This document shows, in pieces, positions 466-17,460 of a stretch of 17,460 bases of DNA (positions are counted from its first letter, which is position 1; every line of letters starts with the position of its first letter). The translations under genes were made by a program, and so were the position numbers. Under the pieces are notes generated by a model. The model saw only the letters and a program-made list of their open reading frames with translations, made no database searches and was not told the DNA's origin. This DNA is from an uncultured archaeon. GTDB taxonomy: Archaea; EX4484-52; JAADEF01. Where the stretch lies: assembly GCA_964407715.1 (NCBI GenBank), contig CAYOWP010000015.1, positions 1 through 17,460 on the forward strand. Reading direction: 5' to 3'.

Positions 466-3349
466 GAATATTAATCCATACACTATCTATAGGATTGTCT
501 ATGTTTTTGTAAACTTTGGCTGAGATATTTATGAGAGGATTAACTGGAAGATTATCTGCATCTATATATTCTGTTCCAGAATATTCAAATGTTGCTTTTT
601 GATTTCTTATTGCTATTCTCTGCTGGATGAATGTAGTTGAGTTCTCTCCATATATTCCGTTTGGATTGGTTAGATTGACTTTGATTGTATGAGTTCCTGC
701 TTCTAATGGTGCTTTAAATGTGTAGTTATAATTTCCTTGTGAATCTGTTGATGTTATTGGTTGCTCAGAGCCTATTATTGCTGTGGGTTCTGGATCTGCA
801 TATTTGCGAACAAATACATAGTCAATATATATTCTTCGAGGATAATCGCTATTTCCTCTTACACCAAAAATAATATTCATCTCTGAAGTTGGAATATAAG
901 AAGTAAAGATATCATTATATATAGTTGATCCCCATTTTTTGTATAAATTAACCTTAGTTACTTTCCATTTTATTATTGCTTTATGATTAGTTAAAACATT
1001 TTGTGGTGCAGTATTAACTCCTGTATTTATTTTCGTTGAAGAATCTCCATTGCCAACTCCTGGTGTTTCTTTCCAATCTGCGATTCCTTCTCCAAACCCT
1101 ACAAAAGGACCATTATCTCCACTTAGAGAATATGAGATAGTTCCACCTAAAGTATTTCCTTTAAATCCATCATACTTAGTTCCTGAACCTCCCCAATCAC
1201 CATAATAATCAATAGAATATTCAAGTATAACCTCTGGTTGAAAAGATTTAACACTTTTTATATATTTCCAAGTACCATCACCAGAATTAAAGGTTATCTT
1301 ACTATCAGAAATTGAATATCCTCCTGTGTTATCGTTCCATTTGTTCACATCTATTTCTTCATCTTCAAAATCATCAAAAAACTCAAAAACATTACTTCCA
1401 TTACTCTCACTCACAGCATTTTGATTTCCATAGTAAAGATAAACCTTTGCTGTTCCATTTGCAGGAATGAATGGAACTTTTATCCATACATATGCCCATG
1501 AAGAGTTTACTTTTTGTTCTATCCAATATGGAATCTTTATTTCTTTATTTGAAGTTTCATTATAATATGTGAATCTTACATCATCAAAATCTGGTTGCAT
1601 GTGAGGAGCATAGGTTATATTTATTGGAATCTGATAATCTGTTAAGTTATTTCCTGAGTTTTCTTGGATTGTTATTGGTTTACGGTAGGTCCATCCTTGA
1701 TTATGTAAATTCACACATTCTCCTTTACAATTCCATCCTTCAACTAAGTTTAACCACATCTTTCCATCCAGCCAAATCCCAATTGTATTATTCACAACAG
1801 AACTTCCATCGGGTTCTAGGATGGCTCTACCTGATATGGTTATATTCTCCTCTGGATTCACTGTATATTTATCTAGATTTATGGAGATTGAAATATTCCA
1901 AGGATATATTGTTCCTCTTTCTCCTCTTTCATATCCACTACCACCATCAACAGAAAAAACACCCGAAAAATTATTATTCACATAATAAATAGCTATCCTA
2001 CCTCCAGATCCTCCTCCACCTTCATTATAGCTACCTGAGCCTCTATCTCCTCCTTTAGCACTAATAGTTCCTTTACCAATGAAATTCTTAGTAATTATCC
2101 ATATTGAACCTCCTGATCCACCACCAGCTCCACCATAACCTCCACCTGGTGGAGTTTCTCCGTTTGCAATAATAGAACCATTAACTATTAAAGTATCGCT
2201 AATATTAATGAATATAGCACCTCCACCATACCCTCCTCTATTCTCAGAACTTCCACCTCCACCAGAACCAAAACTTGTTGGTTGAGTTAATGAACCATAA
2301 GGAGATCCTCCACACGAACATCCGTATGATCTTCCTCCATAACCACCATAACCACCACCACATCCATCACCTCCAGCGGAGCAATATCCTCCACCTCCTG
2401 GACCTTGGCCAGTAGAGTTAATATTACCTCCAGGATATCCCTTTCCTGTTGCATCTATCTTTGCTCCTTCTTCTATAGTTAGATTCTGAGCTGTGATGTT
2501 CACATTACCACTAATATTACCTCCATTATCAATTCTTACCCAACCACCTATATTTATTTCAAATCTATCTCCTGGAGCACTATTAAGAGATCCTCCATCT
2601 TTAATCCGCAAATTACCCGTTCCATTTATACTACCGCCATCAGGTATAGTTACAGAGGAGTTTATTACACAGGTAGTATTTAAATCTCCTTCATCGCACA
2701 CCAATCCTCCAGCCCCCCAAGTTGAGAATTTAGCAACCTTTAATATGATATGAGTTTTGTTTTGCCTTGAACCTAAAATTGAGTTAAATGGTATAGATTC
2801 CCACTTTTCACATCTTTTTTCTAAAAGAGAATAGTTTTTACAATAATATATCGCATTACATCTTACTTCTTTATTTTTAGGAAGAATAATCTCCACATAG
2901 TTATAGTCTATAACATTATTTAGACCCTCTACTGTTATTAGAGGTGTATAAAGTACAATTTTTTCATTGCTTTTTTCCTTAGGTTCTGAAATCATCATTT
3001 TGAATGAAAGATTTGAAGGAATATTTTTTGTAGAGTTAATACTGATGTCCTTAACAATTAATATAACTCCCTTATCTGATAAAATTATCATATCATAAGT
3101 TTTTTCTAATAAATCACCAATAGATATTTCTCTTACGAATTTATTTTTATCTTTATCAAAGAATTTAATTTCATATGGCTGGTTGTTAGATTCATCATAA
3201 ACTGAAATCTTAACTTTTTTGTGTTTTTGAAAGGATGATATAAAATCTATTTTATTTGTTTTATAAAGAAAAAGAGAAATGTCTACAAAAAATAGAAGAA
3301 TTACTATTATTACAAGGATAACATTTAATGGTGATGTTTTATCCTGCAT
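461..3349 (-). CDS. Large membrane-anchored cell-surface protein: N-terminal TM, Gly-rich GGGxGG region, Ig-like repeat, DUF2341-like and lectin/ConA-like domains; interrupted by a frameshift
   Basis: 962-aa ORF with an N-terminal hydrophobic helix, GGGSGGSIWI/GGGSGGRIAI Gly-rich motifs, a DUF2341-type segment (WTYRKPITI..DFDDVRF..IPYWIE..WIKVP..LYYGN..FFDDFE) and many NxS/T sequons. Confidence 0.8.
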   Translation of the reverse strand: MQDKTSPLNVILVIIVILLFFVDISLFLYKTNKIDFISSFQKHKKVKISVYDESNNQPYEIKFFDKDKNKFVREISIGDLLEKTYDMIILSDKGVILIVKDISINSTKNIPSNLSFKMMISEPKEKSNEKIVLYTPLITVEGLNNVIDYNYVEIILPKNKEVRCNAIYYCKNYSLLEKRCEKWESIPFNSILGSRQNKTHIILKVAKFSTWGAGGLVCDEGDLNTTCVINSSVTIPDGGSINGTGNLRIKDGGSLNSAPGDRFEINIGGWVRIDNGGNISGNVNITAQNLTIEEGAKIDATGKGYPGGNINSTGQGPGGGGYCSAGGDGCGGGYGGYGGRSYGCSCGGSPYGSLTQPTSFGSGGGGSSENRGGYGGGAIFINISDTLIVNGSIIANGETPPGGGYGGAGGGSGGSIWIITKNFIGKGTISAKGGDRGSGSYNEGGGGSGGRIAIYYVNNNFSGVFSVDGGSGYERGERGTIYPWNISISINLDKYTVNPEENITISGRAILEPDGSSVVNNTIGIWLDGKMWLNLVEGWNCKGECVNLHNQGWTYRKPITIQENSGNNLTDYQIPINITYAPHMQPDFDDVRFTYYNETSNKEIKIPYWIEQKVNSSWAYVWIKVPFIPANGTAKVYLYYGNQNAVSESNGSNVFEFFDDFEDEEIDVNKWNDNTGGYSISDSKITFNSGDGTWKYIKSVKSFQPEVILEYSIDYYGDWGGSGTKYDGFKGNTLGGTISYSLSGDNGPFVGFGEGIADWKETPGVGNGDSSTKINTGVNTAPQNVLTNHKAIIKWKVTKVNLYKKWGSTIYNDIFTSYIPTSEMNIIFGVRGNSDYPRRIYIDYVFVRKYADPEPTAIIGSEQPITSTDSQGNYNYTFKAPLEAGTHTIKVNLTNPNGIYGENSTTFIQQRIAIRNQKATFEYSGTEYIDADNLPVNPLINISAKVYKNIDNPIDSVWINIH
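698..752. repeat. 55-bp exact intragenic repeat of positions 1-55
   Basis: tgcttctaatggtgct...gaatctgttgat is identical at 1-55 and 698-752 and encodes TDSQGNYNYTFKAPLEA. Confidence 0.95.
1781..1897. repeat. Diverged intragenic repeat of ~133-249
   Basis: Both encode NISISINLDKYTVNPEENITISGxAILxPDGSxVVNNTI, with mostly synonymous differences. Confidence 0.9.
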
Positions 3350-3804: not shown

Positions 3805-4280
3805 AAGTTAGTTGCCATCAAAAAACCACTTTAGAAGATTAGCTTCTGTAGGATACTTTTTGAAATATTATGTTTCCCCTTAACAAAATAAAAAAATTTG
3901 ATAGAAATGGTTAACAGGGAGGAAATCTCTTTCATTGGAGGTCTCAGAGCAGCTAACCTTAATAGAGGTTAGCTGGTTCTAAACCGAGCAAAAGATTAGA
4001 TTTCCACTTAACCAAATTTTTATTTTGATAACATAGTTAATGCGAAGAAATCGCTTTTCTGAACCACATGATAGCATGTTAACCGGCTTAAAGGTTAGTT
4101 GCTTTCTAATCCCTTTATGAGGTTAGCTGCTCCAATACGCCGAATGAACAGGTTTTGTTCTCGTTAACCATTTTTCTGAAGTTTTTACAGCATGCTAACA
4201 TTTCTTTAGGTGAGCTGCTCTGATTGGGTTGCTTGATAGTGTGTATTCCCTTTAACCAATAATGAAATTCTATTGACATG
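3805..4280. repeat. Degenerate array of bipartite repeat modules related to the 250-bp element
   Basis: AGGTTAGCTGCT-like boxes followed by TTCCnnTTAAC at 3836-3884, 3966-4012, 4120-4168 and 4208-4256 (+) and at 3910-3959 and 4036-4085 (-). Perfect 10-bp hairpin at 3950-3975. Degenerate right terminus at ~4252-4280. Confidence 0.75.
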
Positions 4281-4295
4281 AGGAAATTGCTATTA

Positions 4296-4554
4296 GGCAT
4301 TGTCCAATACTTCCATATTAATAAAATTTTGTTAAGCGGAAAGATAACCTCTTAAAGAAGCGCATTAGAGCAGCAAACCTTATAGAGCTAATGCAATTGT
4401 AAGAACGAGTTTTCTCGTTAACAAATCCTCATTAAAAAATTATTGGACATTTTGTTAACAGGAAGCAGAGCTCTATTCAAGAGGTTAAACCGCTATAAGT
4501 GCTATTTGCGCGTTAAGTTTCCGCTTAACAAATAAAGAATTATTGGATAATGTC
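4296..4554. mobile_element. MITE-like foldback repeat, copy A (259 bp)
   Basis: Termini GGCATTGTCCAATA / TATTGGATAATGTC, flanked by TA on both sides; homologous to 14144-14392 and 14904-15152; no credible ORF inside. Confidence 0.8.
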
Positions 4555-4625
4555 TACTAAGATTTAAAAATTTTACTAAAATAGAATAATTAAATTTATC
4601 TTGGTAGAAAGGAGGGGTGAAGGGA

Positions 4626-5807
4626 ATGAGGATAATTCCATTTAGGAAGTATGGAGAAAATCCAAGAGAGATATATGAAAAAGTGAGATCATATTTTAAT
4701 GAGATTTTAGAGCAAGAAAGATATACTGGCATGATAAGTGAAATCGCATCAAATTTTGATGAAAAATATAGAAATCTTGATGAGGAAGAGAAGGGAATCA
4801 TAAAGTATATTCTCTCAGGAAAACGAGGAGGATATAAGGAAGGCAAAACAAGAGAATATGATAAATTCTATAAAATTATATTAGATAAGAAACTTCCTAA
4901 GGAGGAGATTTATGGAAGGGTTGTGTCATGGAATGCTAGATTAGAGGTCCTTGAAAGATATTTCGAAATAGTAGAGAAAGTAAATAAAAAATTGAAGGAA
5001 TCTTTGGTGGCATATTCACGTGATATTCTAAGATCATACTTAGAGCAAATGGGAAAGAGAATAAATGAGAATACTAAGAATGCAATAGAGAGTTTTGTTA
5101 ATAAATATGAGGAAAAAGCAGAAGGAAGCGAAAAGAGAAGCAAGATTGCAGCTATTTTGGCAGGAGTTTCACTTATGATTGGAGGAGTTTTAACACCAGT
5201 ATATAGTCTCAATAAAGCTGGATCTGAGTCAAAGATACATATTCACGAGAATAAAACACCAAAGGTAGAGAAGCAATACAACATTGCTACTCCACAAAAA
5301 ATTCTTGATGCATTGAAGGAATATGCAAACAAAAATGATGCAAAGATTTTTATTAGGAAAAATGAAAATAAGCCAGTATATTATATTACATGGATAGATA
5401 AAACACCAGAAAGGTTAGAGCTATATAATAAAAAAGATAAATGGTTCGTAGGAAAAAGATTGGCAAGTTTTGGTGAGAAATTACAAAAATATCTAAAGAA
5501 AACATTTCAGAATATATCCACAAAAGCAGGGATAAAATCAACAAGGAAATATGCAGGATATGGCGTGGAAGTATCTTCAGAGAAAGGAAAGAATCATTAT
5601 ATTATATGGTTGGCTAGTATCAAGAAAAAACCATTAAAGAAAAAAACAGAATTAAAAGAAAGAAGAGAAGTAAGTAAAAAGATAACACATGAAAAAGTCC
5701 AAGAACTACCCGAGAAGATCAAAAAAGAAGCAAAAAAAGAGGAACAGAAGGGATATAATATTAGGATATGGGGTAGACCACTTGGTAAGGACATAATAAA
5801 AAAATAA
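4626..5807 (+). CDS. Hypothetical Lys/Glu-rich protein with one central transmembrane helix
   Basis: Long ORF (396 aa from GTG 4617). GGAGGGGTGA RBS favours ATG 4626. TM segment IAAILAGVSLMIGGVLTPVY. Family not recognised. Confidence 0.75.
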   Translation: MRIIPFRKYGENPREIYEKVRSYFNEILEQERYTGMISEIASNFDEKYRNLDEEEKGIIKYILSGKRGGYKEGKTREYDKFYKIILDKKLPKEEIYGRVVSWNARLEVLERYFEIVEKVNKKLKESLVAYSRDILRSYLEQMGKRINENTKNAIESFVNKYEEKAEGSEKRSKIAAILAGVSLMIGGVLTPVYSLNKAGSESKIHIHENKTPKVEKQYNIATPQKILDALKEYANKNDAKIFIRKNENKPVYYITWIDKTPERLELYNKKDKWFVGKRLASFGEKLQKYLKKTFQNISTKAGIKSTRKYAGYGVEVSSEKGKNHYIIWLASIKKKPLKKKTELKERREVSKKITHEKVQELPEKIKKEAKKEEQKGYNIRIWGRPLGKDIIKK

Positions 5808-5808
5808 A

Positions 5809-6735
5809 TTATTTCCTTTTATAACTCCATAAAGTGAACCACTTTATTATGGGTTTTACATAATCCTCGTTTGTGTAAAATTTTATGAACCCCGCATTGC
5901 TTTCAATGAAAAGTTTTTCATATTTTTTTTCCTGTTGTTTTGCTAACTTTTCGTATTTTTCTTTTATTTTATCTATATTAACCTCTGTGATACTTCCATC
6001 TATGGGATTTTGCACTCGTAAATATCCGACATCTCTTGGCAAATATGTATCTCTCAAATCTCTTACCATAATACCTAAAAGACCATCAAATTTAAATGCC
6101 GCTGATTTAAGTGTATCATCCCAATCATCTCCAGCATATATAAAATCCGAGATGATAATAAGGATGCTCCTTTGATAAGATACCTTCATGATAAAGTTTA
6201 GCATTTTTTTAAAATTCTTGCTACCTTTCCAGTTTTCCTTTAGAAGCAATTCCGATAATATGCGCACAGTTTGAATTGAGCTATTTTCAGGTGGAATATA
6301 TTTTATATCATCATTGAACATAAGCAAACTAACTCTATACCCGCTCTCAAGTGCTGCAATAGCTATGCTTCCTGCCAATAATGTAGCATATTCTCTCTTT
6401 AATATCTCTTGTGTCCCAAAATCCATAGTTGCTGAGGAATCAACAGCAATAATCACCTCAAGATCCTGCTCTTCCTCAAATACCTTCACATAAAGTCTAT
6501 CCAATTTACCAGAAGTTGACATTCTTGCCGAGACCTTCCAGTCTATCAAAGATGCATCATCTGTTGGTAAATACTTTCTTATATCAGAGAATTCTATCCC
6601 TTTTCCCCTTAAAACGATTTTATATTTAAGGATTAACTTGAAGAGATCAACTAACCTCTTCACATCCCTATTAATCATTATTAGATATTCTTTAACCTCT
6701 TTTTTTATGCCCTTATGTAATTTATTTGCTTCCAT
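5809..6735 (-). CDS. DUF58-family protein (vWA-like, usually MoxR-associated)
   Basis: GKGIEFSDIRKYLPTDDASLIDWKVSAR, LYVKVFEEE, VDSSATMDFG and IISDF are DUF58 hallmarks. Start uncertain (6765/6735/6678). Confidence 0.9.
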   Translation of the reverse strand: MEANKLHKGIKKEVKEYLIMINRDVKRLVDLFKLILKYKIVLRGKGIEFSDIRKYLPTDDASLIDWKVSARMSTSGKLDRLYVKVFEEEQDLEVIIAVDSSATMDFGTQEILKREYATLLAGSIAIAALESGYRVSLLMFNDDIKYIPPENSSIQTVRILSELLLKENWKGSKNFKKMLNFIMKVSYQRSILIIISDFIYAGDDWDDTLKSAAFKFDGLLGIMVRDLRDTYLPRDVGYLRVQNPIDGSITEVNIDKIKEKYEKLAKQQEKKYEKLFIESNAGFIKFYTNEDYVKPIIKWFTLWSYKRK

Positions 6736-6801
6736 AAATAAAATATTTATATGAGAACGTATCAATATATTAATTTATATAAGCTTGAAAGGTGATAAAA
6801 T

Positions 6802-7575
6802 ATGACCAAGATAATTGCGATAGCATCAGGCAAGGGCGGTGTTGGAAAGACAACACTAACAACAAACTTAGCAGCTTCCTTAGCAAATAAAGGAAAAAAA
6901 GTGATTGTTGTAGATGCCAATTTATCAGCACCAAACTTAGCAATTCATTTAGGGATTCCTACAGCATCTTTAATTACATTAAATGATGTAATAAAACATA
7001 ATGTGTACATTACTCATGCTTTATATAAGCATTCATCTGGATTTTATGTAGTGCCTGCTGATTTAGATGAGATTGAGAGAAATTATGGCGGATTAAAGAA
7101 GGCATTAAAACAACTCTTAGGAAATGCAGATGTTGTTATATTAGATGCTGCTCCAGGGATTAATAAAGAAGTAGAAGCAGCAGTAAGGATAGCAGATGAG
7201 GTTCTTCTCATCACAACACCTGATGAGGCATCACTGAGGAATGTTATGCTCCTCAAAAGATATATTGATAATATAGGAAAAAAGATAGCGGGAGTGGTGG
7301 TGAATCAAGCAAGAAATGTACATTATGAGCTCTCGGATAGAGAGATAGAAGAGAGACTGGGCGTAAAGGTACTTGGAAGAGTGCGCTATCATAGAAAATT
7401 CAGAGAAAGCATAGCATTGGGTGTGCCATTCGTAGATATAGCAAAAGGAACAGAGCAGCAGATGGTGATAGATAAGATATCTCAAACCATACTTGATGGC
7501 CAGGAGAGGAATCTTTCTTTACTTGAGAAGGTAGTGGCTTTTCTAAATAGAGATATAGTTATATGGAGTGAATAA
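6802..7575 (+). CDS. minD: MinD/ParA-family ATPase (archaeal MinD-like)
   Basis: Deviant Walker A SGKGGVGKTT, VVDAN, ILDAAPG, ITTPD; GGTGA RBS. Confidence 0.88.
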   Translation: MTKIIAIASGKGGVGKTTLTTNLAASLANKGKKVIVVDANLSAPNLAIHLGIPTASLITLNDVIKHNVYITHALYKHSSGFYVVPADLDEIERNYGGLKKALKQLLGNADVVILDAAPGINKEVEAAVRIADEVLLITTPDEASLRNVMLLKRYIDNIGKKIAGVVVNQARNVHYELSDREIEERLGVKVLGRVRYHRKFRESIALGVPFVDIAKGTEQQMVIDKISQTILDGQERNLSLLEKVVAFLNRDIVIWSE

Positions 7576-8113
7576 GATGTGGGAGGTATTTTTCCTTTCA
7601 GGTATTGTTTTTTTACTTCTTGGAATTTTTGAATTTAAAAGATATAGAAAGGAAAAATTTAAGGAATATACAGATACAAGTAAAGCCATAAAATCTATTC
7701 TTCAGCAGAATGAGAAAAGTACATCACCTCAGCAAAATATCATAAAGAAAAAGGTTATTCCTTTGGACTTGCCCTTAGATACCATTAAATCAGAGCATCC
7801 TGAAAATAAAGAACTCGAGCAATTCTCGCAGGATAATCTTGCTACGATAACACAACCTTCTTATGACATAGAAGAAAAGAAAAGATTATGGGAAAATCAT
7901 TGGATTGTGAAGAAGGTAAAGGAGAGATTTGAAAAAAAGCAGGAGATAGAGGAACCACAAGAAAATTCTTTGCCTAATCTGTTACCTTCTCAGGAACATA
8001 GCAAAGCAGAGGAATCTATTAAGGAACAGGATGTAGAGAAAAAGCCTGAAGATGATGAGAAGAAAAAAGAGAAAGAGGAGAAGGAGTTCAATCCATTTGA
8101 TATATTTGGATAA
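7568..8113 (+). CDS. Hypothetical protein with N-terminal membrane anchor and charged low-complexity tail
   Basis: 181-aa ORF overlapping the minD stop; TM segment VFFLSGIVFLLLGIF. Confidence 0.7.
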   Translation: MNKMWEVFFLSGIVFLLLGIFEFKRYRKEKFKEYTDTSKAIKSILQQNEKSTSPQQNIIKKKVIPLDLPLDTIKSEHPENKELEQFSQDNLATITQPSYDIEEKKRLWENHWIVKKVKERFEKKQEIEEPQENSLPNLLPSQEHSKAEESIKEQDVEKKPEDDEKKKEKEEKEFNPFDIFG

Positions 8114-8118
8114 GAAAT

Positions 8119-8283
8119 CTAATACCTTTTATATGATGTAATAGAATGCTCTAAAGAAGCAGATTTTTTTCTTTCTAAATCTCTTACACGTAAAGCAATC
8201 ATTTTGTTTATCCTCTGCACCTCCTTCCAGTTTCCCAATATCAACATCTGCTTTTTCATTTCAATTAATGTCCTCAAATCCAT
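8119..8283 (-). CDS. Small basic hypothetical protein (54 aa), not in the ORF track
   Basis: MDLRTLIEMKKQMLILGNWKEVQRINKMIALRVRDLERKKSASLEHSITSYKRY*, preceded by a GGGAGGG RBS and an AT-rich TATA-like region (~8335-8350). Confidence 0.55.
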   Translation of the reverse strand: MDLRTLIEMKKQMLILGNWKEVQRINKMIALRVRDLERKKSASLEHSITSYKRY

Positions 8284-8392
8284 AGCCCAACCCTCCCATT
8301 TCTTTTATGAGTATTACAAAAAATTAAAGTATGTGATATATTTAAATATTTCTACACTTTAATATATATATTGAAGTGTATACATTCTAATA

Positions 8393-8779
8393 TCAAGTTG
8401 TGTTATAAAGCGGAATTACCTCAAATGTAAGGTGATTGAATTGATTAATATATGGTATAAATAAATATCTCCCGTCAATAGTTGTATAAACAAAATCCCA
8501 TGAGTTATTAAGAGAAACATTATATTTATACAACCCATTCACAATCGTTAGATATTCAACTGAAATAGAGTTATTTGTGGAATTAACTCTTTCGCGAATG
8601 TATTCCTCTATTTTAGGAGTTATGTTTTGTGCATTTTCAATGTTAAGAACATTGATAAACCTATTGTATCTTGATATAGTTTCAGAGCATTCTTTTTCTA
8701 ATTTTATATATGCGAAAAACACGCAAATTAAGAGGAGAAGCAAAATCACAATAGCTATTCTCTCATTTGTTATTCTCAT
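8393..8779 (-). CDS. Hypothetical membrane-anchored protein
   Basis: 128 aa with an N-terminal TM. C-terminal GLYKYNV..VYTTIDGRYLF resembles DsbC N-terminal-like domains; no CxxC. Confidence 0.7.
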   Translation of the reverse strand: MRITNERIAIVILLLLLICVFFAYIKLEKECSETISRYNRFINVLNIENAQNITPKIEEYIRERVNSTNNSISVEYLTIVNGLYKYNVSLNNSWDFVYTTIDGRYLFIPYINQFNHLTFEVIPLYNTT

Positions 8780-8837
8780 ATAGATAAAATATATTTTTCA
8801 TAATCTTTAAAAAGATTTCATTATTATTTTTAATCTT

Positions 8838-9515
8838 ATGAGCGCAAAAAAACCCGTTATTGCAATAAATTTCAAGGCATATGAAAATGCATTTGGGCCT
8901 GGATGTGAGAGGTTATTGGACAAGATAGAGCATTTTGCAAAAGAATTTGATATAGATACAATAGTGGCTTTGCCTTTAACAGAGATATATAGGAGCAAAA
9001 AATATAAATATCTCAAAATCTATGCTCAAACAACTTATGGAATAGATTTTGGAGCACATACAGGAAAGATACCTATAAAGGCACTGTTACATTATGGTGT
9101 AAGAGGTGTTGTGGTGAATCATGCTGAGGATCAGAGAACAATAAAAGAGATTGAGGAAATATTAAATAGAGCTAATGAGTTGGATTTAGAGACTTTACTT
9201 TGCTCTTCCTCGATAGAATCATCTATGGCTTTTTCATATTATAGGCATGTCACTTATATTGCATATGAACCTCCAGAGCTGATAGGCAGTGGAAAGTCAG
9301 TTTCTGAATATAGGGGAGAAGATATCAAATATCTCTCTGAGAGAATAAAAATAAATAATTCATTGCTTTCCTTCTTGGTAGGGGCAGGAGTAACCAAAAG
9401 AAAAGATATTGATATTGCTTTGCAATTGGGTGCAGATGGTGTTTTTGTTGCATCTGCAATAATGAAATCAAAAAATATTGATAGAACCTTGGAAGAATTC
9501 TTTGCATTCTGGTGA
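8838..9515 (+). CDS. tpiA: Triosephosphate isomerase, archaeal short type
   Basis: INFKAY, GAHTG, NHAE (catalytic His), AYEPPELIG (catalytic Glu), VGAGV, VASAIMK; 225 aa. Confidence 0.97.
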   Translation: MSAKKPVIAINFKAYENAFGPGCERLLDKIEHFAKEFDIDTIVALPLTEIYRSKKYKYLKIYAQTTYGIDFGAHTGKIPIKALLHYGVRGVVVNHAEDQRTIKEIEEILNRANELDLETLLCSSSIESSMAFSYYRHVTYIAYEPPELIGSGKSVSEYRGEDIKYLSERIKINNSLLSFLVGAGVTKRKDIDIALQLGADGVFVASAIMKSKNIDRTLEEFFAFW

Positions 9516-9521
9516 GAGATT

Positions 9522-9890
9522 TCATTCTTCATTAGATATTGCATATATGAATCCTATGGACATAGCTATACCTATCAATACTCCAAAAACGATATATGCT
9601 GCGGCATATTTCTTTGGATCAGGAAGAGCGAATTCAACCTTATTAAAGAAATAATTCGCGATACCTAATAAAAACAAAGAAATAAGAGCTACATAAAAAG
9701 CTCTAATTCTGTATATTCTCAAAGAGAGAAGCAAATATGCTGTTATAAAAGAGGTTGTTGATATGAGATATATGGTTAAGAAAGTGACATCAATATAAGG
9801 TCTAAATAACAAAGCAATCAAAACACCAAAAAACAGACTCATTATAATAAATCCGAGTAGACGGGGAGATTCTTTGTCCTTGTCTACCAT
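9522..9890 (-). CDS. Hypothetical integral membrane protein (~4 TM)
   Basis: 122-aa ORF with four hydrophobic stretches. Confidence 0.75.
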   Translation of the reverse strand: MVDKDKESPRLLGFIIMSLFFGVLIALLFRPYIDVTFLTIYLISTTSFITAYLLLSLRIYRIRAFYVALISLFLLGIANYFFNKVEFALPDPKKYAAAYIVFGVLIGIAMSIGFIYAISNEE

Positions 9891-10058
9891 AATATTTAAT
9901 AAAGCATGATCCCTTATATATATTTTAATTTTGAAGAAGAGGTATTACTTATAAGTGGTTTATGATTACAGCAAGATTTAAATATTTTAAGTGAAAAATT
10001 ATTTAAATTAAACCATAAACATAGTTATATCATAGCATAGATAAAGGAGATTGAAAAA

Positions 10059-10634
10059 ATGGCAGAGAAGAGACAAGTTAAGAGGGACACATGGAGCAAA
10101 AAGACATGGTTTAAGGTATATGCTCCAGAGATGTTTAACAAACAGGATGTTATTGCAGAGACACCAGCATTAAAATCCAGTTATGTTATTGGCAGAGTAG
10201 TGGAGCTACCTCTGACAGAGGTAACAGGCAGTTTCAAACATTATAAATATAAGGTATTCTTAAAGATAATCGATGTAAAAGGTGATAAGGCATATACTCA
10301 GCTTGATGGGATAGAGCTTCTGAGAGATTTTGTTGCGAGGATGGTAAGAAAAAGGACATCTCGAGTTGATCTCATAGAGGATATCACAAGTAAAGATGGC
10401 ATAAAGGCAAGATATAAATTGATTCTTATCACAAAGAGAAGGGTTAAAACAAGTACAAAGAAAGATATCAGAAAAACAATGAAAAGTGTTCTTGAGGAAT
10501 TTGTTACATCTAACTACTTCAAGGATATTGTTCATGCTTTCTTAAACGAGAGCATTCATCGGAGGATGATAGAGAGGGCAAATAAGATATATCCTGTGGA
10601 GTATTTTGATTTGAGGAAATTGGAGGTGTTTTAA
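10059..10634 (+). CDS. rps3ae: 30S ribosomal protein S3Ae (eS1)
   Basis: DTWSKKTWFKVYAPEMF, IGRVVE, RMVRKRTSRVD, KIYPV..LRKLEV; AGGAG RBS. Confidence 0.96.
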   Translation: MAEKRQVKRDTWSKKTWFKVYAPEMFNKQDVIAETPALKSSYVIGRVVELPLTEVTGSFKHYKYKVFLKIIDVKGDKAYTQLDGIELLRDFVARMVRKRTSRVDLIEDITSKDGIKARYKLILITKRRVKTSTKKDIRKTMKSVLEEFVTSNYFKDIVHAFLNESIHRRMIERANKIYPVEYFDLRKLEVF

Positions 10635-10637
10635 AAC

Positions 10638-10844
10638 ATGCCAGTTCCAAAAGAGCTTTTAGAGATTTTAGCATGCCCTAAATGCAAAGGAGACCTTGAG
10701 GAGAAAGGCATGTTTCTTGTGTGCAAATCATGCGCTCTTGCATATCCTGTGCTAAATGATAAAGTGCCTGATATGTTAATCGAGGATGCTTGGGATTTGG
10801 ATAAGGCAAAGAAAAATGATTATAAACATAATCTAAAGCTATAA
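10638..10844 (+). CDS. trm112: Trm112-family methyltransferase activator (Zn ribbon)
   Basis: [14 protein letters not shown]...LVCKSC...YPV....PDML. Confidence 0.9.
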
Positions 10845-10854
10845 AGGGTAAACA

Positions 10855-11430
10855 ATGACGTTAAAAAATGTTTTAAAACATAAAAAACAAAAAGCAGAAA
10901 TAAAAGTTGATGAGGAAATTTTCTTGGTACCATATGGGAAGAATTATCATAAGATATATAAGAGCATAGTCTCTAAACTCATCAGCATATATGTTTCTGC
11001 ATATAAAGGAATCGAGAGATTTAGATACAAAACAAAGAGACAAATTAGAAAGCACATTAGATGGCTAATAAACAGATGCTGGGATAACTTCTATCTTATC
11101 TATATAAAGAGACAGAATAAAAGAAAATTAGTGGGGTTTATAGGGATAGAGTTTAACTGGTTTGATGAAGAGCTCTTGGAAAGGGGAGCCATTATTCATG
11201 AGTTTGCCATAAGAAAAGAATACCAATCTAGAGGTATTGGAGGCAAGGTCCTTCGGTATCTCCTTAATAATATTTCGCGATATAACATAAAAAAGATTAT
11301 ATTGACCGTAGGAGAGGATAATGAAAAAGCCTTGAGATTTTATGAGAAATTAGGATTCAAAAAGGTTCAAAAAGACATCACCGAAAAACATAAAGATGTC
11401 ATATGGGTTTATATGATAAAGGAGTTATAG
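10855..11430 (+). CDS. GNAT-family N-acetyltransferase
   Basis: Motif A IHEFAIRKEYQSRGIGGKVL and motif B NEKALRFYEKLGF. Confidence 0.92.
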   Translation: MTLKNVLKHKKQKAEIKVDEEIFLVPYGKNYHKIYKSIVSKLISIYVSAYKGIERFRYKTKRQIRKHIRWLINRCWDNFYLIYIKRQNKRKLVGFIGIEFNWFDEELLERGAIIHEFAIRKEYQSRGIGGKVLRYLLNNISRYNIKKIILTVGEDNEKALRFYEKLGFKKVQKDITEKHKDVIWVYMIKEL

Positions 11431-11440
11431 AAAAATGAAG

Positions 11441-12310
11441 TTACACATACTCCTCCAAGAGATCTTCGATATCCACATTTTCTATATCCTGTAATGCCGC
11501 TGGGATTGGGGTGTTGATATCTTTATATTCGTCCTCTAAAATCTCCTTTTGCTCCACATAGAACACGCCAATAGGTATTTTGTCATCTTTTTCATAACCT
11601 TCCCATGCCTTAGCAAGAGCAGCATTCTTATCGTATGGCTCATAATCCGTATCTTCCAGCTTATATATGCGAGAGGAATAATATGAATAATCCATAGATG
11701 GATTCATGCTTACACATGGCTGCAATACATCTATGAAGGCATATCCTCTATGTTGAAGTGCCTTTTTTACAAGTTCTGTGAGATGTGCTAAATCTCCTGA
11801 AAAGCCTCTTGCAATAAATGTTGCTCCTGCCTCAATAGCTAAAGCTATTGGATTAATGGCATGCTCAGGATTACCATGGAGTGTGGATTTTGTGATAACA
11901 TGATAATATGTTGTGGGAGATGCCTGACCTTTTGTTAATGCATAGATATGGTTGTTGTGAACAATATGCACTATGTCAATGTTCCTCCTCATATTTTGAA
12001 TCCAATGGTTCAGTCCAATGCCATAATTATCCCCATCCCCTGTATGAACTATAACCTTTAGGTTTGGGTTTACCAATCTTATAGCCATTGCGGGAGGTAA
12101 GGCTCTTCCATGGATTCCCTCAAATCCATAGGTTTTGATATAATGAGGTATTTTCCCAGAACATCCTATACCTGAAATCACAACAACATCCTTTGGATCA
12201 ATATTTAACTCAGCAATGGCTTTCCTTACAGCATTTACAATTCCGAAGTTACCACATCCAGGACACCACTGTATCCAATGCTTTGGATCCAATTCCTCTA
12301 TTCCTACCAT
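11441..12310 (-). CDS. korB: 2-oxoacid:ferredoxin oxidoreductase beta subunit (TPP-binding)
   Basis: WCPGCG, SGIGCS, HGRA, GDGD...NN TPP motif, TKGQASPT, QPC. Substrate not determinable from sequence. Confidence 0.95.
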   Translation of the reverse strand: MVGIEELDPKHWIQWCPGCGNFGIVNAVRKAIAELNIDPKDVVVISGIGCSGKIPHYIKTYGFEGIHGRALPPAMAIRLVNPNLKVIVHTGDGDNYGIGLNHWIQNMRRNIDIVHIVHNNHIYALTKGQASPTTYYHVITKSTLHGNPEHAINPIALAIEAGATFIARGFSGDLAHLTELVKKALQHRGYAFIDVLQPCVSMNPSMDYSYYSSRIYKLEDTDYEPYDKNAALAKAWEGYEKDDKIPIGVFYVEQKEILEDEYKDINTPIPAALQDIENVDIEDLLEEYV

Positions 12311-12319
12311 GGATATCCC

Positions 12320-14056
12320 CTATTTTCTTAATATCTCCAATGCTTTCTCAACAATATCCTCGGGCATGAAAGGTCTTCCATCATATTTCAGATATTTATC
12401 ATGTATCTCTATACCTGTGTGCTCCCTTATTAATCCACCCAATTGTGAGGTATAGTTCAATTCAATCAATAAATTCTTAGCGCTATCATTGAGATAAGCT
12501 ATACTATCCTCTGTTGGAAATGGCATGAGATAGAGATAATGCAATACCCTACTTCCTATATTATGCTCTTCATATAACATCCTTTGCGCCTCTAAGCATG
12601 GCATCTTTGTGGAGCCCCAACATATCAAGTTTATTTCAGGTTCTCCTTTCTCGTACACCCTCAACCTATATATTTCCTTATCCAAGGCATTTAGTTTTTT
12701 CATTCTCTTCTCCATTTGCTTATTTCTCATCTCAATGTTTTCTGTTGTAAACCCTGTCTCATCATGTTCATAGCTGCTCACAACATGGATAGTATTTGGA
12801 TAAGATGGCAAACTTCTATATGAGATCCCATCTTCCTCATTTAGAGAATATCTTTTATACTCACTTACTTTCTCTGCTTCTTCATAACTTAAAAGCTTCC
12901 CTCTATCTATTTTCAACTTGGATGTATCAAATCTTGGAATTGATTGATATGATGTGCAGAGATACTTATCTAATAGCACAATTACAGGTGTTTGAAGTTT
13001 TTCTGCAATATTAAATGCATCAAAAACAGCATAAAACGTCTCTTCCACATCTCCTGGAGCTATGACCACTCTTGGAGTTTCTCCCTGAGCAGCATGCATT
13101 ACAAATCTTAAGTCACCTTGCTCTGTATAAGTAGGCATGCCAGTACTAGGAGAGCCTCTCTGACCTTCAATTATCACTATTGGAAGTTCCATTAATCCTG
13201 CCATACCCAATGCCTCAACCATTAATGCAAATCCACCTCCTGATGTAGCAGCCATGCTTCTTGCTCCAGCAAATGAAGCACCGATCACGCTATTTATAGC
13301 CGCGATCTCATCCTCTGTTTGCTTTACCACAATCTTCTTTTTCTTTTCATACTTTGACATTAGGGTTAAGATGGGAGAGGTTGGTGTCATGGGATACATA
13401 CCAACATATTTTACACCTGCCTTTATAGCACCCAATACAGCTGCTGTGTTGCCATCCATGAACAGTCTTTCCTTATCTCTTTTTATCATATCTATCTTAA
13501 CCTTATAAAAGACATCCCTAACTTGAGAGAAGCCCAAATGAAATGCCTTTTTATTAACTTCTATGATTTCTTGAGATTTTCCTTTGAACGTATCTTCTAT
13601 TACCTCTTCAACTATGGATTTGTTCATATCAAGTATGCTTGCCACAACACCCAAAGCAATCATGTTATAATACTTTATCTCCCCAATCTCAGAGAGAAGT
13701 TTATTGAATGGAATTGCGATAAAGGAAATATCATCTCTTTTAACTGATGGTTCAAATGAGGCATCATGGATAATCATTCCCTCAGGTGATATCTCATGTA
13801 TATGCTTCTCTATACTCAGATTGTCAAATGCCACAAGTATATTTACATTTTTGTTTTGAGAATATATAGCATGCTTAGATGCCCTTATATGAACCATGTT
13901 GTGACCGCCTTTTATCAATGAAGGATAATCATCATACACAAAGACATTCCATCCATGTCTCTTTATTGCCCTTCCAATAGAGATTCCAAGGCTTATAATC
14001 CCTGCACCTGCCGGACCACCAACCATTATCCCTACTTCCGATTCCTTGCCGCTCAT
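12320..14056 (-). CDS. korA: 2-oxoacid:ferredoxin oxidoreductase alpha subunit (gamma-alpha fusion)
   Basis: GGPAGAGI, IKGGH, YPMTPTS, EDEIAA, ATSGGGFALM, QRGSPSTGMPT, WGST, KYDGRPF. ATG 14056 or GTG 14062 after GGTGAG. Confidence 0.95.
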   Translation of the reverse strand: MSGKESEVGIMVGGPAGAGIISLGISIGRAIKRHGWNVFVYDDYPSLIKGGHNMVHIRASKHAIYSQNKNVNILVAFDNLSIEKHIHEISPEGMIIHDASFEPSVKRDDISFIAIPFNKLLSEIGEIKYYNMIALGVVASILDMNKSIVEEVIEDTFKGKSQEIIEVNKKAFHLGFSQVRDVFYKVKIDMIKRDKERLFMDGNTAAVLGAIKAGVKYVGMYPMTPTSPILTLMSKYEKKKKIVVKQTEDEIAAINSVIGASFAGARSMAATSGGGFALMVEALGMAGLMELPIVIIEGQRGSPSTGMPTYTEQGDLRFVMHAAQGETPRVVIAPGDVEETFYAVFDAFNIAEKLQTPVIVLLDKYLCTSYQSIPRFDTSKLKIDRGKLLSYEEAEKVSEYKRYSLNEEDGISYRSLPSYPNTIHVVSSYEHDETGFTTENIEMRNKQMEKRMKKLNALDKEIYRLRVYEKGEPEINLICWGSTKMPCLEAQRMLYEEHNIGSRVLHYLYLMPFPTEDSIAYLNDSAKNLLIELNYTSQLGGLIREHTGIEIHDKYLKYDGRPFMPEDIVEKALEILRK

Positions 14057-14143
14057 GCTCACTCACCACAATTCAAAGTGAAGACTATAATAATTATTTA
14101 GTATCTCAGAGAATATAAAGATTTTTGGAAGAGCTGTGGGATT

Positions 14144-14392
14144 GGCATTGTCCAATAATTTTCTATTTGTTAAGCGGAAGAGTAACCTCTTAAAGAAGCG
14201 CATTAAAGTAGCGAACCTTATAGAGCTAATGTGATTATAAGAGCAAGATTTCTCGTTAACAAATCCTCATCAAAAATTATTGGACAATTTGTTAACGGGA
14301 AGCATAGCCATATTCAAAGGGTTAACTGCTCTCATGCGCTTCTGTGAGAGGTAATGTTTCCGCTTAACAATAAAGAATTATTGAACAAAGCC
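14144..14392. mobile_element. MITE-like foldback repeat, copy B (249 bp)
   Basis: GGCATTGTCCAATAAT...ATTATTGAACAAAGCC; about 17 substitutions from copy C by hand alignment; arms are imperfect reverse complements. Confidence 0.85.
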
Positions 14393-14460
14393 CCTTTGAT
14401 GTTTTTCATTAAACAACATTTTTAAACTTTAGATGAACTATATTCTTATAAGGTGGTAGA

Positions 14461-14649
14461 ATGTCTCGGGTAAGGTATGCAACTAAGGAGGATATAGAGA
14501 GGTTAGAAAGGAAAATTGATCTCATTCTTACATGTTTAGAAGAGGAGTTTATTGATATAGAGGAATTGCAGGAGGGTCTAAAAGAGATTAAAGATGGAAA
14601 AGTTGTTTCATTAGATGAATATATAAAGAAGAGGAGATTAAATGTATAA
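14461..14649 (+). CDS. Putative type II antitoxin (RelB-like)
   Basis: 62 aa, acidic, ending EELQEGLKEIKDGKVVSLDEY; overlaps the toxin start; AGGTGG RBS. Confidence 0.8.
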   Translation: MSRVRYATKEDIERLERKIDLILTCLEEEFIDIEELQEGLKEIKDGKVVSLDEYIKKRRLNV

Positions 14650-14899
14650 AATCATACTAACCAAGAAGTCCGAAAAGATCTTAGATAGGATAAAAGATGA
14701 GAAACTACTAAAATATATCATAAAGTCTCTCAAAAAATTAGAGCACAGCCCATACATTGGCAAGAAGTTAAGGGGGTTTGACTCTCTTTACAGAATAAGA
14801 GTTGGCAAATTTAGAATAATTTATAAAATAGATGAAAAAGAGAAGGTTATTTATATTGTCTTAATAGACAAAAGGTCAAGGGTTTATAAAAGGATTTGA
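14642..14899 (+). CDS. relE: RelE/ParE-family type II toxin
   Basis: 85 aa, basic; MYKIILT..., GKKLRG..LYRIRVGKFRIIYKID, RSRVYK. Confidence 0.93.
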   Translation: MYKIILTKKSEKILDRIKDEKLLKYIIKSLKKLEHSPYIGKKLRGFDSLYRIRVGKFRIIYKIDEKEKVIYIVLIDKRSRVYKRI

Positions 14900-14903
14900 T
14901 GTT

Positions 14904-15152
14904 GGCGTTGTCCAATAATCCTCTATTTGTTAAGCGGAAGAGTAACCTCTTAAAGAAGAGTATTAGAGCAGCAAATCTTATAGAGCTAATGCGATTATAA
15001 GAGCAAGATTTCTCGTTAACAAATCCTCATCAAAAATTATTGGACAATTTGTTAACGGGAAGCATAGCCCTATTCAAAGGGTTAACTGCTCTCATGCGCT
15101 TCTGTGAGAGGTTACATTTCGGCTTAACAATAAAGAATTATTGGACAATGCC
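14904..15152. mobile_element. MITE-like foldback repeat, copy C (249 bp)
   Basis: GGCGTTGTCCAATAAT...ATTATTGGACAATGCC; direct repeat of copy B. Confidence 0.85.
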
Positions 15153-15242
15153 TTAATTGATCTTGTTTCCTAAATCTTTTTATAAATCAAATTTCTTTTG
15201 TGTGGTCATACATATATGGGGTTTATCCCCCTATATATGTTT

Positions 15243-15256
15243 TATTGGACAATGCC
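15243..15256. repeat. Orphan right terminal repeat of the element
   Basis: TATTGGACAATGCC is the exact reverse complement of the first 14 bp of copies A and B; preceded by a hairpin at 15210-15240. Confidence 0.85.
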
Positions 15257-15747
15257 TATGAAATACGCTCGTTAGTTTTTCTGTCAAATATGTTTATCTT
15301 TAAATCAGCAGTAAGTCCAAAATTTGTGTTTTGCCAATGATGGATGCCTATTATAAGTTCATATTGCAGTTTTATTTTATCTGAATGGTCATAACTTTCA
15401 GTAATTTCCTTAATTATCCTCAAAGTTGATCCCAATTCCTTTAATTGCCAGGATGTTGCTATGTTCTCAGACAGCATATCAAGAAGATATTTTCTGAAGA
15501 TCATACCGAATAAAGAACTATTCACATCTATTTCTTCAGAATGAGATTTGATATCATTTCCGTAATAGTAAACTGTGTTTCCTATTCTCTTTCTCCATTT
15601 ACCTGACGAGAAACTTTCATCATAGTGAGCTTTTGAAACTTTTATTTTCCGTGGATACTGAGCGATTGGATAAATGTTAATGTATAAAACCCCTGAAGTT
15701 CCTCTCGCTAAGCTCTCAACATCCATAAAATTATCTAACCCCATCAT
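15256..15747 (-). pseudogene. Truncated N-L1-L2 subunit of a split prokaryotic Argonaute (AfAgo-N-like)
   Basis: SGVLYINIYPI, GKWRKRIG, FRKYLLDMLSENIATSWQLKELGSTLR and KLQYELII..HHWQNTNFG match Archaeoglobus fulgidus AfAgo-N as I recall it. Start ATG 15747 follows GGTGAGGTG and overlaps the OLD stop. The TAG stop is formed at the junction with the orphan terminus. Confidence 0.75.
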
Positions 15748-17401
15748 GATTAAACACCTCACCCAAAATAGTTTTGGTCTCACTTAAAAAGGAAGGATAG
15801 TAGTCAGGATATTCATTGAAAATCTTGTTAATAATAAATCTTAGTTTTTGACCTTTTCTCAGATTTAGAGTTCTTGCTTCATCTTCAAAGTTGGAATATT
15901 TATTATATTTCCCATTGTTTTCACAGTAACTGGTAAAATCTTCCTTTAATGCAGTCTCTATATTTCCTTTGAATATGAGTAATCTTTGTTTAAATCTCGC
16001 AGTCAATAATTTAAAAGTTTCATTTTCTCCTATATCCTCAATATCTTCAGCGTTTACATCAAAACAATCAGCAATGATCTTATTATTTCTTTCTGATTCT
16101 GGCTTATCAATATCGTTATCAAAAACAACTAGCATAGGTATTCCAAACTTATAGAATAATCTCCAATATTTTGGGATTTGGGATTTGCCTCCAACCCTAA
16201 TTACAGATATTCCTAGTTTATCTGGATCAAACCTTATTTTCTTAAGAAATACTGGAAAGCATAACTCTTCTGTTTCTCCTTCTACTAGAATAACATATCT
16301 TGCAAAGAAAGCTTCTTTTAATTTTTCATTGGAGGTTATGGCGTAAAATTCAGTGATGTTATCTACTGTAGAGCGACCACTTGCTCCTGTTTCATTCGAA
16401 AAATCAACAAGCTCTTGCTTTGTAACCTGTCTAATTTTTGTCCCCTCATCAGGATTTTTATAGACGAGAGCGATATTTTCAAAATGTTCTGTTTCAATGA
16501 ATGAGGAGGAATGGGTTGTAATTATTATTTGAATGTTAGAATCTTTAACTATATCTTTGAAAACATGTAATAAATGCCTTCTCGCCTGAGGATGCATATA
16601 TATCTCGGGTTCTTCAATAATTAACAACCCTTGAGCCTCTTGTTTGAAATTTTTTGCGTAAGCTCTTAATAGAGATAGGACTATTAAGTTTCGGGTTCCT
16701 TCTCCTAGTTCTTCAATATCTATGTCATAATTTTCTCCTAAAACCTTATCATTTACGAGAATATTAATCGTTTTAAAATAATTTAATGGTGTAAAAGGCT
16801 TGAAATCAACTTTTAACTTATAAGAGGCTGTTGTTTGGAGTTCTTCAAAAAATAGCGCAAAATCTTCTTTGAACTGTTTAAATTCCCCTATTTTGTCAAA
16901 AACATCCATTATTTCATTAAACTTTTTTTCCAATTCTTCTGTTAAATTACTTTCTTTTATGCGTTTATTAAGAGCCTGCGCAATTTTCCCCATTAAAGTC
17001 CATTTATGGAATGACAATGTTTGAGAAATATTTCTCTGTGCTGGAAGATAAATACATGGGAAATCTTCTTTAACATTACCCTGAGAAGGCCAGATTCGAT
17101 TGCCATTTTCATCAAAATATTTAGGCCATTCTCCCTCATCACTTTCGAACTCCACACGTCTTCCATTATCGAATTCGATCTTAATCTCGATTGTGTTGTT
17201 GGGATCTCTCATATAAAAATCGATTGGATCAATATCTTTTCCCCACCATGTTTCCCCAAGAATATTATTAAGCGTTCTTACTATGTTAGATTTCCCTGCA
17301 TTATTAGCACCCACCATAATCATTAAACCGCTTTCTGGAAAACGAAACTCAAGATTTTTTATAGAACGAAAATTCTTTATGTAAACCTTACTTATTTTCA
17401 T
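15731..17401 (-). CDS. OLD-family ATP-dependent nuclease (ABC ATPase + TOPRIM)
   Basis: IKNFRSI, Walker A GANNAGKS, ELGEG signature, Walker B IIEEPE..MHP, ITTHS, TOPRIM ILVEGETE and FDND. GAGGAGGTG RBS favours ATG 17401. Confidence 0.93.
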   Translation of the reverse strand: MKISKVYIKNFRSIKNLEFRFPESGLMIMVGANNAGKSNIVRTLNNILGETWWGKDIDPIDFYMRDPNNTIEIKIEFDNGRRVEFESDEGEWPKYFDENGNRIWPSQGNVKEDFPCIYLPAQRNISQTLSFHKWTLMGKIAQALNKRIKESNLTEELEKKFNEIMDVFDKIGEFKQFKEDFALFFEELQTTASYKLKVDFKPFTPLNYFKTINILVNDKVLGENYDIDIEELGEGTRNLIVLSLLRAYAKNFKQEAQGLLIIEEPEIYMHPQARRHLLHVFKDIVKDSNIQIIITTHSSSFIETEHFENIALVYKNPDEGTKIRQVTKQELVDFSNETGASGRSTVDNITEFYAITSNEKLKEAFFARYVILVEGETEELCFPVFLKKIRFDPDKLGISVIRVGGKSQIPKYWRLFYKFGIPMLVVFDNDIDKPESERNNKIIADCFDVNAEDIEDIGENETFKLLTARFKQRLLIFKGNIETALKEDFTSYCENNGKYNKYSNFEDEARTLNLRKGQKLRFIINKIFNEYPDYYPSFLSETKTILGEVFNHDGVR

Positions 17402-17459
17402 GTCCAAACACCTCCTCTAAAATACTTTCTTTCATCTCCTCGAGCTGGGTTATCTGATT
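17388..17459 (-). CDS. C-terminal end of an upstream gene, possibly type I restriction-modification specificity subunit HsdS
   Basis: NQITQLEEMKESILEEVFGHENK* overlaps the OLD start and resembles the LEELKxSILxxAF terminal helix of HsdS; only 23 residues visible. Confidence 0.45.
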   Translation of the reverse strand, partial: NQITQLEEMKESILEEVFGHENK

Positions 17460-17460
17460 C

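Follow-up and report, generated by a model that had tools for sequence, protein, structure and literature searches.

The window, by which we mean the whole stretch of 17,460 nucleotides analysed here, is contig C15 of an archaeal genome assembly (G000) of 898,521 bases in 16 contigs, 92% complete. Its gene content and size point to a small DPANN-type archaeon; from their translations, we take an eS1-like ribosomal protein and an archaeal-type triosephosphate isomerase to be among its genes. The window holds two kinds of non-coding repeat that have a 49-bp unit, the arm, in common: an old mosaic array of palindromic modules (3807-4256) and three copies of a miniature inverted-repeat transposable element (MITE) whose ends are those of the IS903 group of insertion sequences (IS). 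The MITE copies lie at 4296-4554, 14144-14392 and 14904-15152, all on the plus strand, with a solo end at 15242-15256 on the minus strand, and the last two copies bracket a toxin-antitoxin pair. The explanation that we favour, and hold to be rather probable without being firm, has two layers, older arrays under constraint and a younger MITE with the composites that it would have formed.

The arm consists of a head box, a middle and a tail box, and a preliminary description of the window had listed twelve copies in both orientations. All twelve were recovered at the same places and on the same strands, with scores of 11.3-38.2 bits, by a profile built from 366 distinct regular-expression hits in the genome; the weakest is 4483-4529, in which the head box is degenerate, and the same scan added two tail-only half copies at 14291-14339 and 15051-15100. 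The fixed length described for the motif also held, 348 of the 366 hits having 47-50 bp where the expression permitted 45-52 bp. The middle had been called unrelated from copy to copy and instead has a consensus, identity to the subfamily consensus being 63-71% in the array classes and 85-86% in the MITE class.

At 10 bits or more the profile found 672 arms in the genome, against a single match of 8.7 bits in a locally shuffled genome; for the regular expression the corresponding counts are 406 and 13. Contig C9 was dropped from all later counts, as 43.7 kb of it duplicate C8 at 100% in the opposite orientation, most likely an assembly artefact, and 634 arms were then left. They form 136 clusters covering 41.7 kb, which is 4.9% of the assembly and roughly 37% of its non-coding DNA according to a crude caller of open reading frames (ORFs), on which all intergenic and ORF counts given here rest, and none of the 634 lies inside a long ORF. 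The motif was found in none of 41 other genomes of the phylum, the same-genus relative G001 (87% complete, 260 contigs) included, a search that diverged sister families in G001-G004 may escape. A 251-bp query against 40 relatives gave just two 21-base matches, which is chance level, and viral contigs gave no motif match. Among the metagenome and genome contig loci pulled by end or arm scans (L numbers below), L041 was the only metagenome locus with a match to the arm profile, and it agrees with part of C8 at 99.7% identity.

The arms are arranged according to a grammar. Neighbours alternate in orientation in 429 of 501 pairs; heads face each other at a spacing with a mode of 9 bp (78 of 246) or otherwise at 35-40 bp enclosing a 19-bp short unit, and tails are joined by linkers of 13-27 bp of A/T that start with CA and end with TG. 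The resulting modules measure 103-110 or 130-137 bp between their outer TTAAC words, and the base that follows the terminal TTAAC is C in 91% of cases, the next being A in 96%. The array of the window begins with a degenerate short unit at 3807-3827 (read from the sequence), followed by arms at 3837(+), 3910(-), 3967(+), 4036(-), 4121(+) and 4209(+). It contains a 107-bp palindromic module at 3908-4014 (tail-arm-head, an 8-bp spacer, head-arm-tail), with the ends TGGTTAAC ... CTTAACCA, and a 137-bp module at 4034-4170 of the same plan with a 19-bp GGTTA..TAA(T)CC unit (4093-4111) between its two heads. Across the genome two arm types, A and B, alternate, and polarity is kept in 72 of 77 successive modules; both boxes contain GGTTA/TAACC, the arm being an inverted pair of these words about 40 bp apart. 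Of the gaps longer than 150 bp, 57 of 80 between divergent genes contain arrays, as do 44 of 80 between tandem and 14 of 34 between convergent ones, and just 2 of 150 modules stand alone.

No target duplication was found around the 150 modules (best z 2.9 among 81 tests of offset and length), and 23 of 41 near-identical arm pairs are located in different arrays. The 9-bp head spacer was tried as a target duplication and rejected, successive spacers matching in 6 of 49 cases with a mean similarity of 0.57 versus 0.50, a likeness best explained by tandem duplication; the 9-mers flanking the short unit, also tried, are alike no more than shuffled ones. Arm conservation has no peak at a 10-bp period. 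In the first and older layer, arms join at their heads over 9 bp, or over 9+19+9 bp when the short unit is present, and at their tails over 13-27 bp of A/T; the polar tandem arrays would have grown as copies duplicated in tandem and recombined with one another, insertion with target duplication playing no part.

The boxes had been taken as a sign of selection rather than of plain decay, and for the array copies this was borne out. Among 364 array arms the mismatch to the nearest neighbour is 0.10 in the head, 0.31 in the middle and 0.14 in the tail, in the same order within G/C sites and within A/T sites, although the mismatch of the boxes is biased low by local alignment trimming, which likewise inflates box conservation in the profile-based figures. 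Tail-blind detection, in which arms are found by columns 1-36 (head and middle) only and the tail is read afterwards, avoids this bias: TTAAC was exact in 229 of 244 arms genome-wide (23 of 267 were dropped for lack of a tail) and in 162 of 166 array arms (15 of 181 dropped). Neutral simulations passed through the same pipeline, starting from four consensus arms with uniform rates and no gene conversion, gave an exact TTAAC in 261 of 356 arms at 5/8% decay, 115 of 234 at 11/18% and 17 of 73 at higher decay. Only 41 of the 364 arms have a neighbour at 95% identity or above, and of 706 middle 13-mers only 183 are seen again in another arm, as about 10% decay per site would give; the copies are therefore not young mosaics, and old copies retain an intact box. 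That array boxes are constrained beyond neutral decay is thus supported, the head box being less strict (84-95% at G1-A5).

The preliminary description had also offered a structured RNA, which the pairing tests do not support. Paired arms show no compensatory change: in 76 modules, none of the 49 columns exceeded a positive z of 1.6. The two largest values across 118 linkers, z 3.9 and 2.4, both fall at nearly invariant columns, the top 20 within-arm column pairs have no Watson-Crick excess, and Rfam gave 0 matches at E 5 in the window. Since the boxes are conserved at the level of sequence without covariation, we infer that what is kept in them, most of all in STTAACCA, is the sequence and not the pairing, and that they are most likely sites read in double-stranded DNA by a putative sequence-specific protein. 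To that extent the protein-binding site suggested earlier fits the constraint on the arrays.

The second layer is recognised by its ends. In the genome, 118 ends (59 left, 59 right) match GGCATTGTCCAATAA at two mismatches or fewer, and the elements between them measure 89-390 bp, typically about 250 bp. The word TTGGACA, first described as belonging to the linkers, is actually part of this transposon end, GGCATTGTCCAATAAT when read inward, which had gone unrecognised, and the toxin-antitoxin pair between two copies had likewise gone unremarked. A flanking direct repeat occurs in 23 of 49 adjacent end pairs, 17 of them of 9 bp, against 17 of 2352 mismatched flanks used as a control, and the 49 pairs include inner end-like words that split whole elements; overall the duplications span 8-11 bp and are mostly of 9. 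In the window, a 259-bp copy (4296-4554) abuts the array, and two copies of 249 bp, 93% identical, lie further on, the left one with arms at 14169(-) and 14320(+); none of the three has a target duplication of its own. Whether the motif maps to the subterminal repeats of an IS or MITE therefore has a divided answer, in that 6 of the 12 listed copies (4331, 4483, 14169, 14320, 14929 and 15080) are subterminal in a MITE. As far as could be searched, the arm-bearing MITE is undescribed so far.

Arms borne by MITEs are more alike than array arms (0.80 for 76 end-adjacent arms against 0.67 for 353 array arms), and the CCGCTTAAC tail is present in 64 of the 76 and in 2 of the 353. In a midpoint-rooted tree without outgroup, drawn from 49 columns of a 100-arm subsample, 27 of 30 sampled MITE-borne arms fall in one clade with a support of 0.86. 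As these arms form a narrow clade, descent of the arrays from this MITE by decay is unlikely, and the capture of one arm variant by IS ends would be the simpler reading.

Scanning metagenomes for the 18-bp end gave 67 loci, one of which, L103, has an autonomous element. This is a full-length IS5/IS903-like element of 1114 bp (980-2093) whose ends agree with the MITE end at 18 of 18 and 16 of 18 positions; its transposase of 316 aa matches PF01609 and PF13737, reaches 199 bits with NF033579 over a cut-off of 140, and has 36% identity to a protein named IS903B family. A transposase of the L103 type may mobilise the MITE. No transposase for the MITE was found in G000, which is 92% complete and in which tblastn with the L103 protein gave a best E of 0.68. 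Genome contigs yielded no relative of this protein and 32 loci for the 18-mer end, none with transposase or motif, and in viral contigs the end 17-mer gave 10 single matches without partner ends. PF13737 matches occur in 4 of 42 genomes of the order, the MITE end was not found in those four loci, and the end pattern in 41 relatives (0-3 per genome) resembles a reversed control (0-2). Five loci (L040, L052, L054, L081 and L101) carry MITEs of 80-81 bp with the same 18-bp end and without the 49-bp arm, flanked in one case by a perfect 9-bp repeat and in two by 8-bp repeats. A 206-bp MITE of the same kind was seen at L067.

The MITEs at 14144-14392 and 14904-15152 stand in direct orientation around two overlapping plus-strand ORFs, one of 62 aa (14461-14649) and the other encoding a RelE/ParE-type toxin of 85 aa (14642-14899; PF05016, E 5e-12). 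The former, without match in Pfam, NCBIfam or PADLOC, is a putative antitoxin, given its position and its homologues ahead of other toxins. Just inside the elements, on the plus strand, lies a 9-bp direct repeat, TTTGATGTT: the left copy (14395-14403) is 2 bp from the MITE end and the right one (14895-14903) includes the toxin stop codon and abuts the MITE. A second composite, on contig C7 (54162-55078), has the same cassette (54417-54858) between two MITEs and is placed between a 5S ribosomal RNA gene and a transfer RNA gene; it shares the inner repeat and is enclosed by an outer repeat of 8 bp, neither member having a repeat of its own. Such an outer repeat was found in one of 51 left-right end pairs 0.5-12 kb apart, the C7 composite, and the 9-bp inner repeat in one of 51 right-left pairs, the window composite, against a background of 5 in 4492 other pairs. 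An outer and an inner repeat around direct elements are what cointegration or the recombination of a one-element circle leaves. Judged from their sequences, the two composites point to MITE-mediated movement of the toxin-antitoxin pair, in which two direct copies would have moved the cassette as a composite, probably by way of a one-MITE circle or a cointegrate. In a look for an empty site, the contig joints across the composite were explained by other MITE copies, and no long piece spans the composite.

The cassettes of the window and of C7 are 95% and 91% alike at their ends and 57% in the middle. The C-terminus of the window antitoxin matches G001 (29 of 42 residues) and that of the C7 antitoxin matches G002 (29 of 43). 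The cassettes at 14461-14899 of the window and 54417-54858 of C7 are paralogues with near-identical ends in which a block of antitoxin C-terminus and toxin N-terminus is swapped; on C5, this antitoxin N-terminus is found ahead of a PemK/MazF toxin as well. For the swap, a hybrid-circle model may be drawn in which a MITE stood between two tandem paralogous cassettes and crossovers in the 5' or 3' homology freed two hybrid circles; later gene conversion would explain it equally well. In G001 the cassette is without MITE, behind the 3' end of a CDC48-type gene and within a 61-bp repeat, 93% alike, of that end. On C5 of G000 (L155, 13938-19028) and in G001 (L146), the CDC48-type ATPase gene is followed downstream by about five repeats of its last codons, with cargo separating them. 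The cargo comprises two small ORFs, an AAA_14/DUF4143 ATPase, a methyltransferase with a small antitoxin-like ORF, a PemK/MazF pair and a DUF2283/DUF4258 pair, and in G001 the toxin-antitoxin pair of the window is the first cassette. No integrase was found in this stack, and the portion of PMC4158269 consulted has nothing on CDC48 as an integration site.

According to the two-layer explanation, IS903-group IS5 ends would at a later time have come to bracket one derived arm variant, giving a non-coding MITE of 130-390 bp moved in trans by a DDE transposase. As to what now maintains the arrays, we incline tentatively to a host or domesticated protein, at not quite an even chance, and rank below it a live mobility enzyme, which we think unlikely. 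Bolder, and in our view doubtful, is the idea that the arrays amount to about 500 protein-binding sites laid out across the genome as a lattice peculiar to this species, with GGTTA/TAACC pairs at fixed spacings of 9, 19 and 49 bp. Domesticated from mobile DNA only recently, they would be kept up by the host, for instance for chromosome organisation or segregation in a reduced DPANN genome, while the MITE that carries the site would spread it and reshuffle toxin-antitoxin cassettes in which interface blocks are swapped.

Several observations speak against this two-layer explanation, beside the trimming bias, the simple design of the simulations and the rooting and small size of the arm tree mentioned above. 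Constraint within the arm is uneven, columns G6, C7 and C41-G44 being free to vary. No candidate binding protein turned up, no systematic search having been made, and relatives should share a site on which the host depends, yet the motif was not found in the 41 phylum genomes. L103 has only the terminal 18 bp in common with the MITE, the arm profile finding no arm in it, and is without clean target duplication. The window composite has no outer duplication, that of C7 is of 8 bp and not of the modal 9, and the inner repeat lies 1-2 bp off the left MITE, its last letters resembling native cassette sequence, so that part of the repeat may be chance.

The strongest rival, which we nevertheless find doubtful, is a live selfish element of REPIN type, in which a trans-acting enzyme would cut or recombine at TGGTTAAC..GTTAACCA and only copies with intact ends would persist. 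The sharply conserved module ends, the restriction to one species, the polarity of the arrays and the near-identical arm pairs found in different arrays agree with it, but the scarcity of close neighbours and of recurring middle 13-mers makes most copies old yet intact, and solitary modules are almost missing. Moreover, G000, at 92% completeness, gave no Y1 HUH, DDE, rve, IS110, IS630, TnpB or serine recombinase match, and searches with the ten families PF12762, PF13610, PF13737, PF01609, PF01797, PF00665, PF00239, PF13358, PF02371 and PF07282 matched nothing in it. Neutral decay of an IS903-type MITE, with the conserved boxes as an artefact of detection, is improbable: the MITE copies do carry the arm, with a smaller gap between box and middle mismatch (0.08 vs 0.16), and 198 of the 634 arms have a MITE end no more than 260 bp away, but the box is intact even when it is unused for detection, which already contradicts this reading. 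In addition, diversity is greater among array arms than among MITE arms, the MITE tail is hardly ever seen in the former, 46 of the 68 clusters with at least four arms have no MITE end, and L103 is without arm.

We give as little credence to the idea that modules and genes are shuffled at the head-to-head junctions, with these serving as tyrosine-recombinase (XerA) or integron-like sites. Each junction is a 12-bp inverted pair around a 7-bp variable core, the boxes contain GTT/AAC, and the sole tyrosine recombinase of G000 has the XerA domain layout. Recombining partner sites need matching cores, whereas 47 different cores occur among 78 junctions; the modules flank ordinary housekeeping genes, no integron integrase was found in G000, and covariation such as attC hairpins give is missing. 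The XerA site dif is single-copy with an 11-6-11 geometry (PMC8371274), which the junctions do not fit. Structured RNAs are the least credible reading of modules or arms, for although the 107-bp module and the MITE fold well (z about -5 and about -11), any palindrome folds, and on both strands equally, the 137-bp module folds weakly (z -1.0 to -1.9), module polarity is independent of the direction of flanking genes, and the pairing and Rfam tests were negative.

Around these repeats, the window encodes at 1-3349 a glycine-rich DUF2341 surface-type protein of 962 aa, with a 55-bp exact internal duplicate (1-55/698-752), paralogous stretches on other contigs, and many variants and joints in read contigs. 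At 15256-17407 there is an OLD-family ATPase/TOPRIM nuclease (558 aa) with an overlapping orphan ORF of 175 aa (15256-15783, minus strand). The outermost base of the solo MITE end completes the stop codon of this ORF, which may for that reason be truncated; it has no match in Pfam, NCBIfam or PADLOC, and no longer homologue was found. The contig depth of 15256-17407 in run X1 is 14 vs 24 for the core, and a contig of run X5 diverges at 15257; run X2, without cover at 15715-17460, is not informative. The sequencing runs that best cover G000 are labelled hydrothermal vent metagenome, and the best one may be the source sample. Contig C4 (65787-77848) has a CRISPR-Cas locus with about 20 repeats, each of 30 bp. 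The operon, into which an unrelated gene of 534 aa has been inserted, appears from its translations to have the gene order cas6, cas7, cas5, cas3, cas4, cas1, cas2, the identity of Cas1 being confirmed. Cas1 was considered as an amplifier of the arrays and rejected, the locus being an ordinary one with an unrelated repeat.

Bacterial interspersed mosaic elements (BIMEs) and REPINs of proteobacteria have a hairpin of 20-40 bp with a GTAG/CGTC foot and are associated with a Y1 transposase (RAYT). The analogy with BIMEs drawn at the outset is apt for the layout: like them, the arrays are intergenic, species-restricted, alternating palindromic units with fixed linkers and no target duplication. 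They differ by a 49-bp bipartite arm that is conserved by sequence without covariation, and RAYT (Y1 HUH, PF01797) gave 0 matches at E 1 in G000. From integron attC and dif sites the arrays differ by their 9-bp spacer, their hundreds of copies beside one XerA-like gene and the lack of covariation, and from CRISPR arrays by alternating arms joined by A/T tracts, the real CRISPR having an unrelated repeat. In summary, the layout of the arrays resembles that of BIMEs, the tests run for REPIN, attC, dif, CRISPR and RNA went against them, and plain decay does not explain the constraint that they show. A 0.9-Mb archaeon with about 5% of its DNA in one repeat whose boxes stay intact raises the testable question of what reads them.

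The MITE itself is of a known kind, being short, non-coding and multicopy, with terminal inverted repeats, 9-bp duplications and a partner that has the same end. A survey of archaeal MITEs reports up to 146 per Mb in a DPANN genome (PMC11602168), a comparably high density of non-autonomous elements; it counts end-bounded elements, which the arrays are not, and its supplementary sequences may hold this family. Entries of the IS903 group have about 1050 bp and 9-bp repeats (Table 2 of PMC3281130), and the MITE resembles this group of IS5 in its GGC-type ends of 15-18 bp, its 9-bp duplications and the end that it shares with the 1114-bp element of L103; ISAba10 on a named plasmid (L144) also has a 9-bp duplication and ends that agree with the MITE end at 11 of 17 bases. 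It departs from the group in its interior of 49-bp arms, its duplications of 8-11 bp and the failure to find a transposase in the host assembly.

Composites bounded by MITEs are known as TIME-COMPs (PMC13367494) and mobile insertion cassettes (PMC3281130), and one-element circles have been described for the translocatable units of IS26, with alternative pathways noted for IS903 (PMC7986276). As in these systems, two direct non-coding elements bracket a cargo, with an outer duplication and no repeat for either member at C7 and an inner repeat of the kind that a circle or cointegrate intermediate predicts. The differences are that the elements are of the IS5/IS903 type and not Tn3 or IS6, reside in an archaeal chromosome, and have as cargo a toxin-antitoxin pair whose two copies carry different antitoxin C-terminus/toxin N-terminus blocks. 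No archaeal MITE composite with a toxin-antitoxin pair was found among the titles and abstract openings searched, which is not proof that none is in print. The MITE is a new member of an established IS903-group kind, to which a matching autonomous element and the toxin-antitoxin composite are now added. At sequence level, the window offers what appears to be a clear archaeal example of two non-coding MITEs that moved a toxin-antitoxin cassette, and the matching transposase is available for assay.

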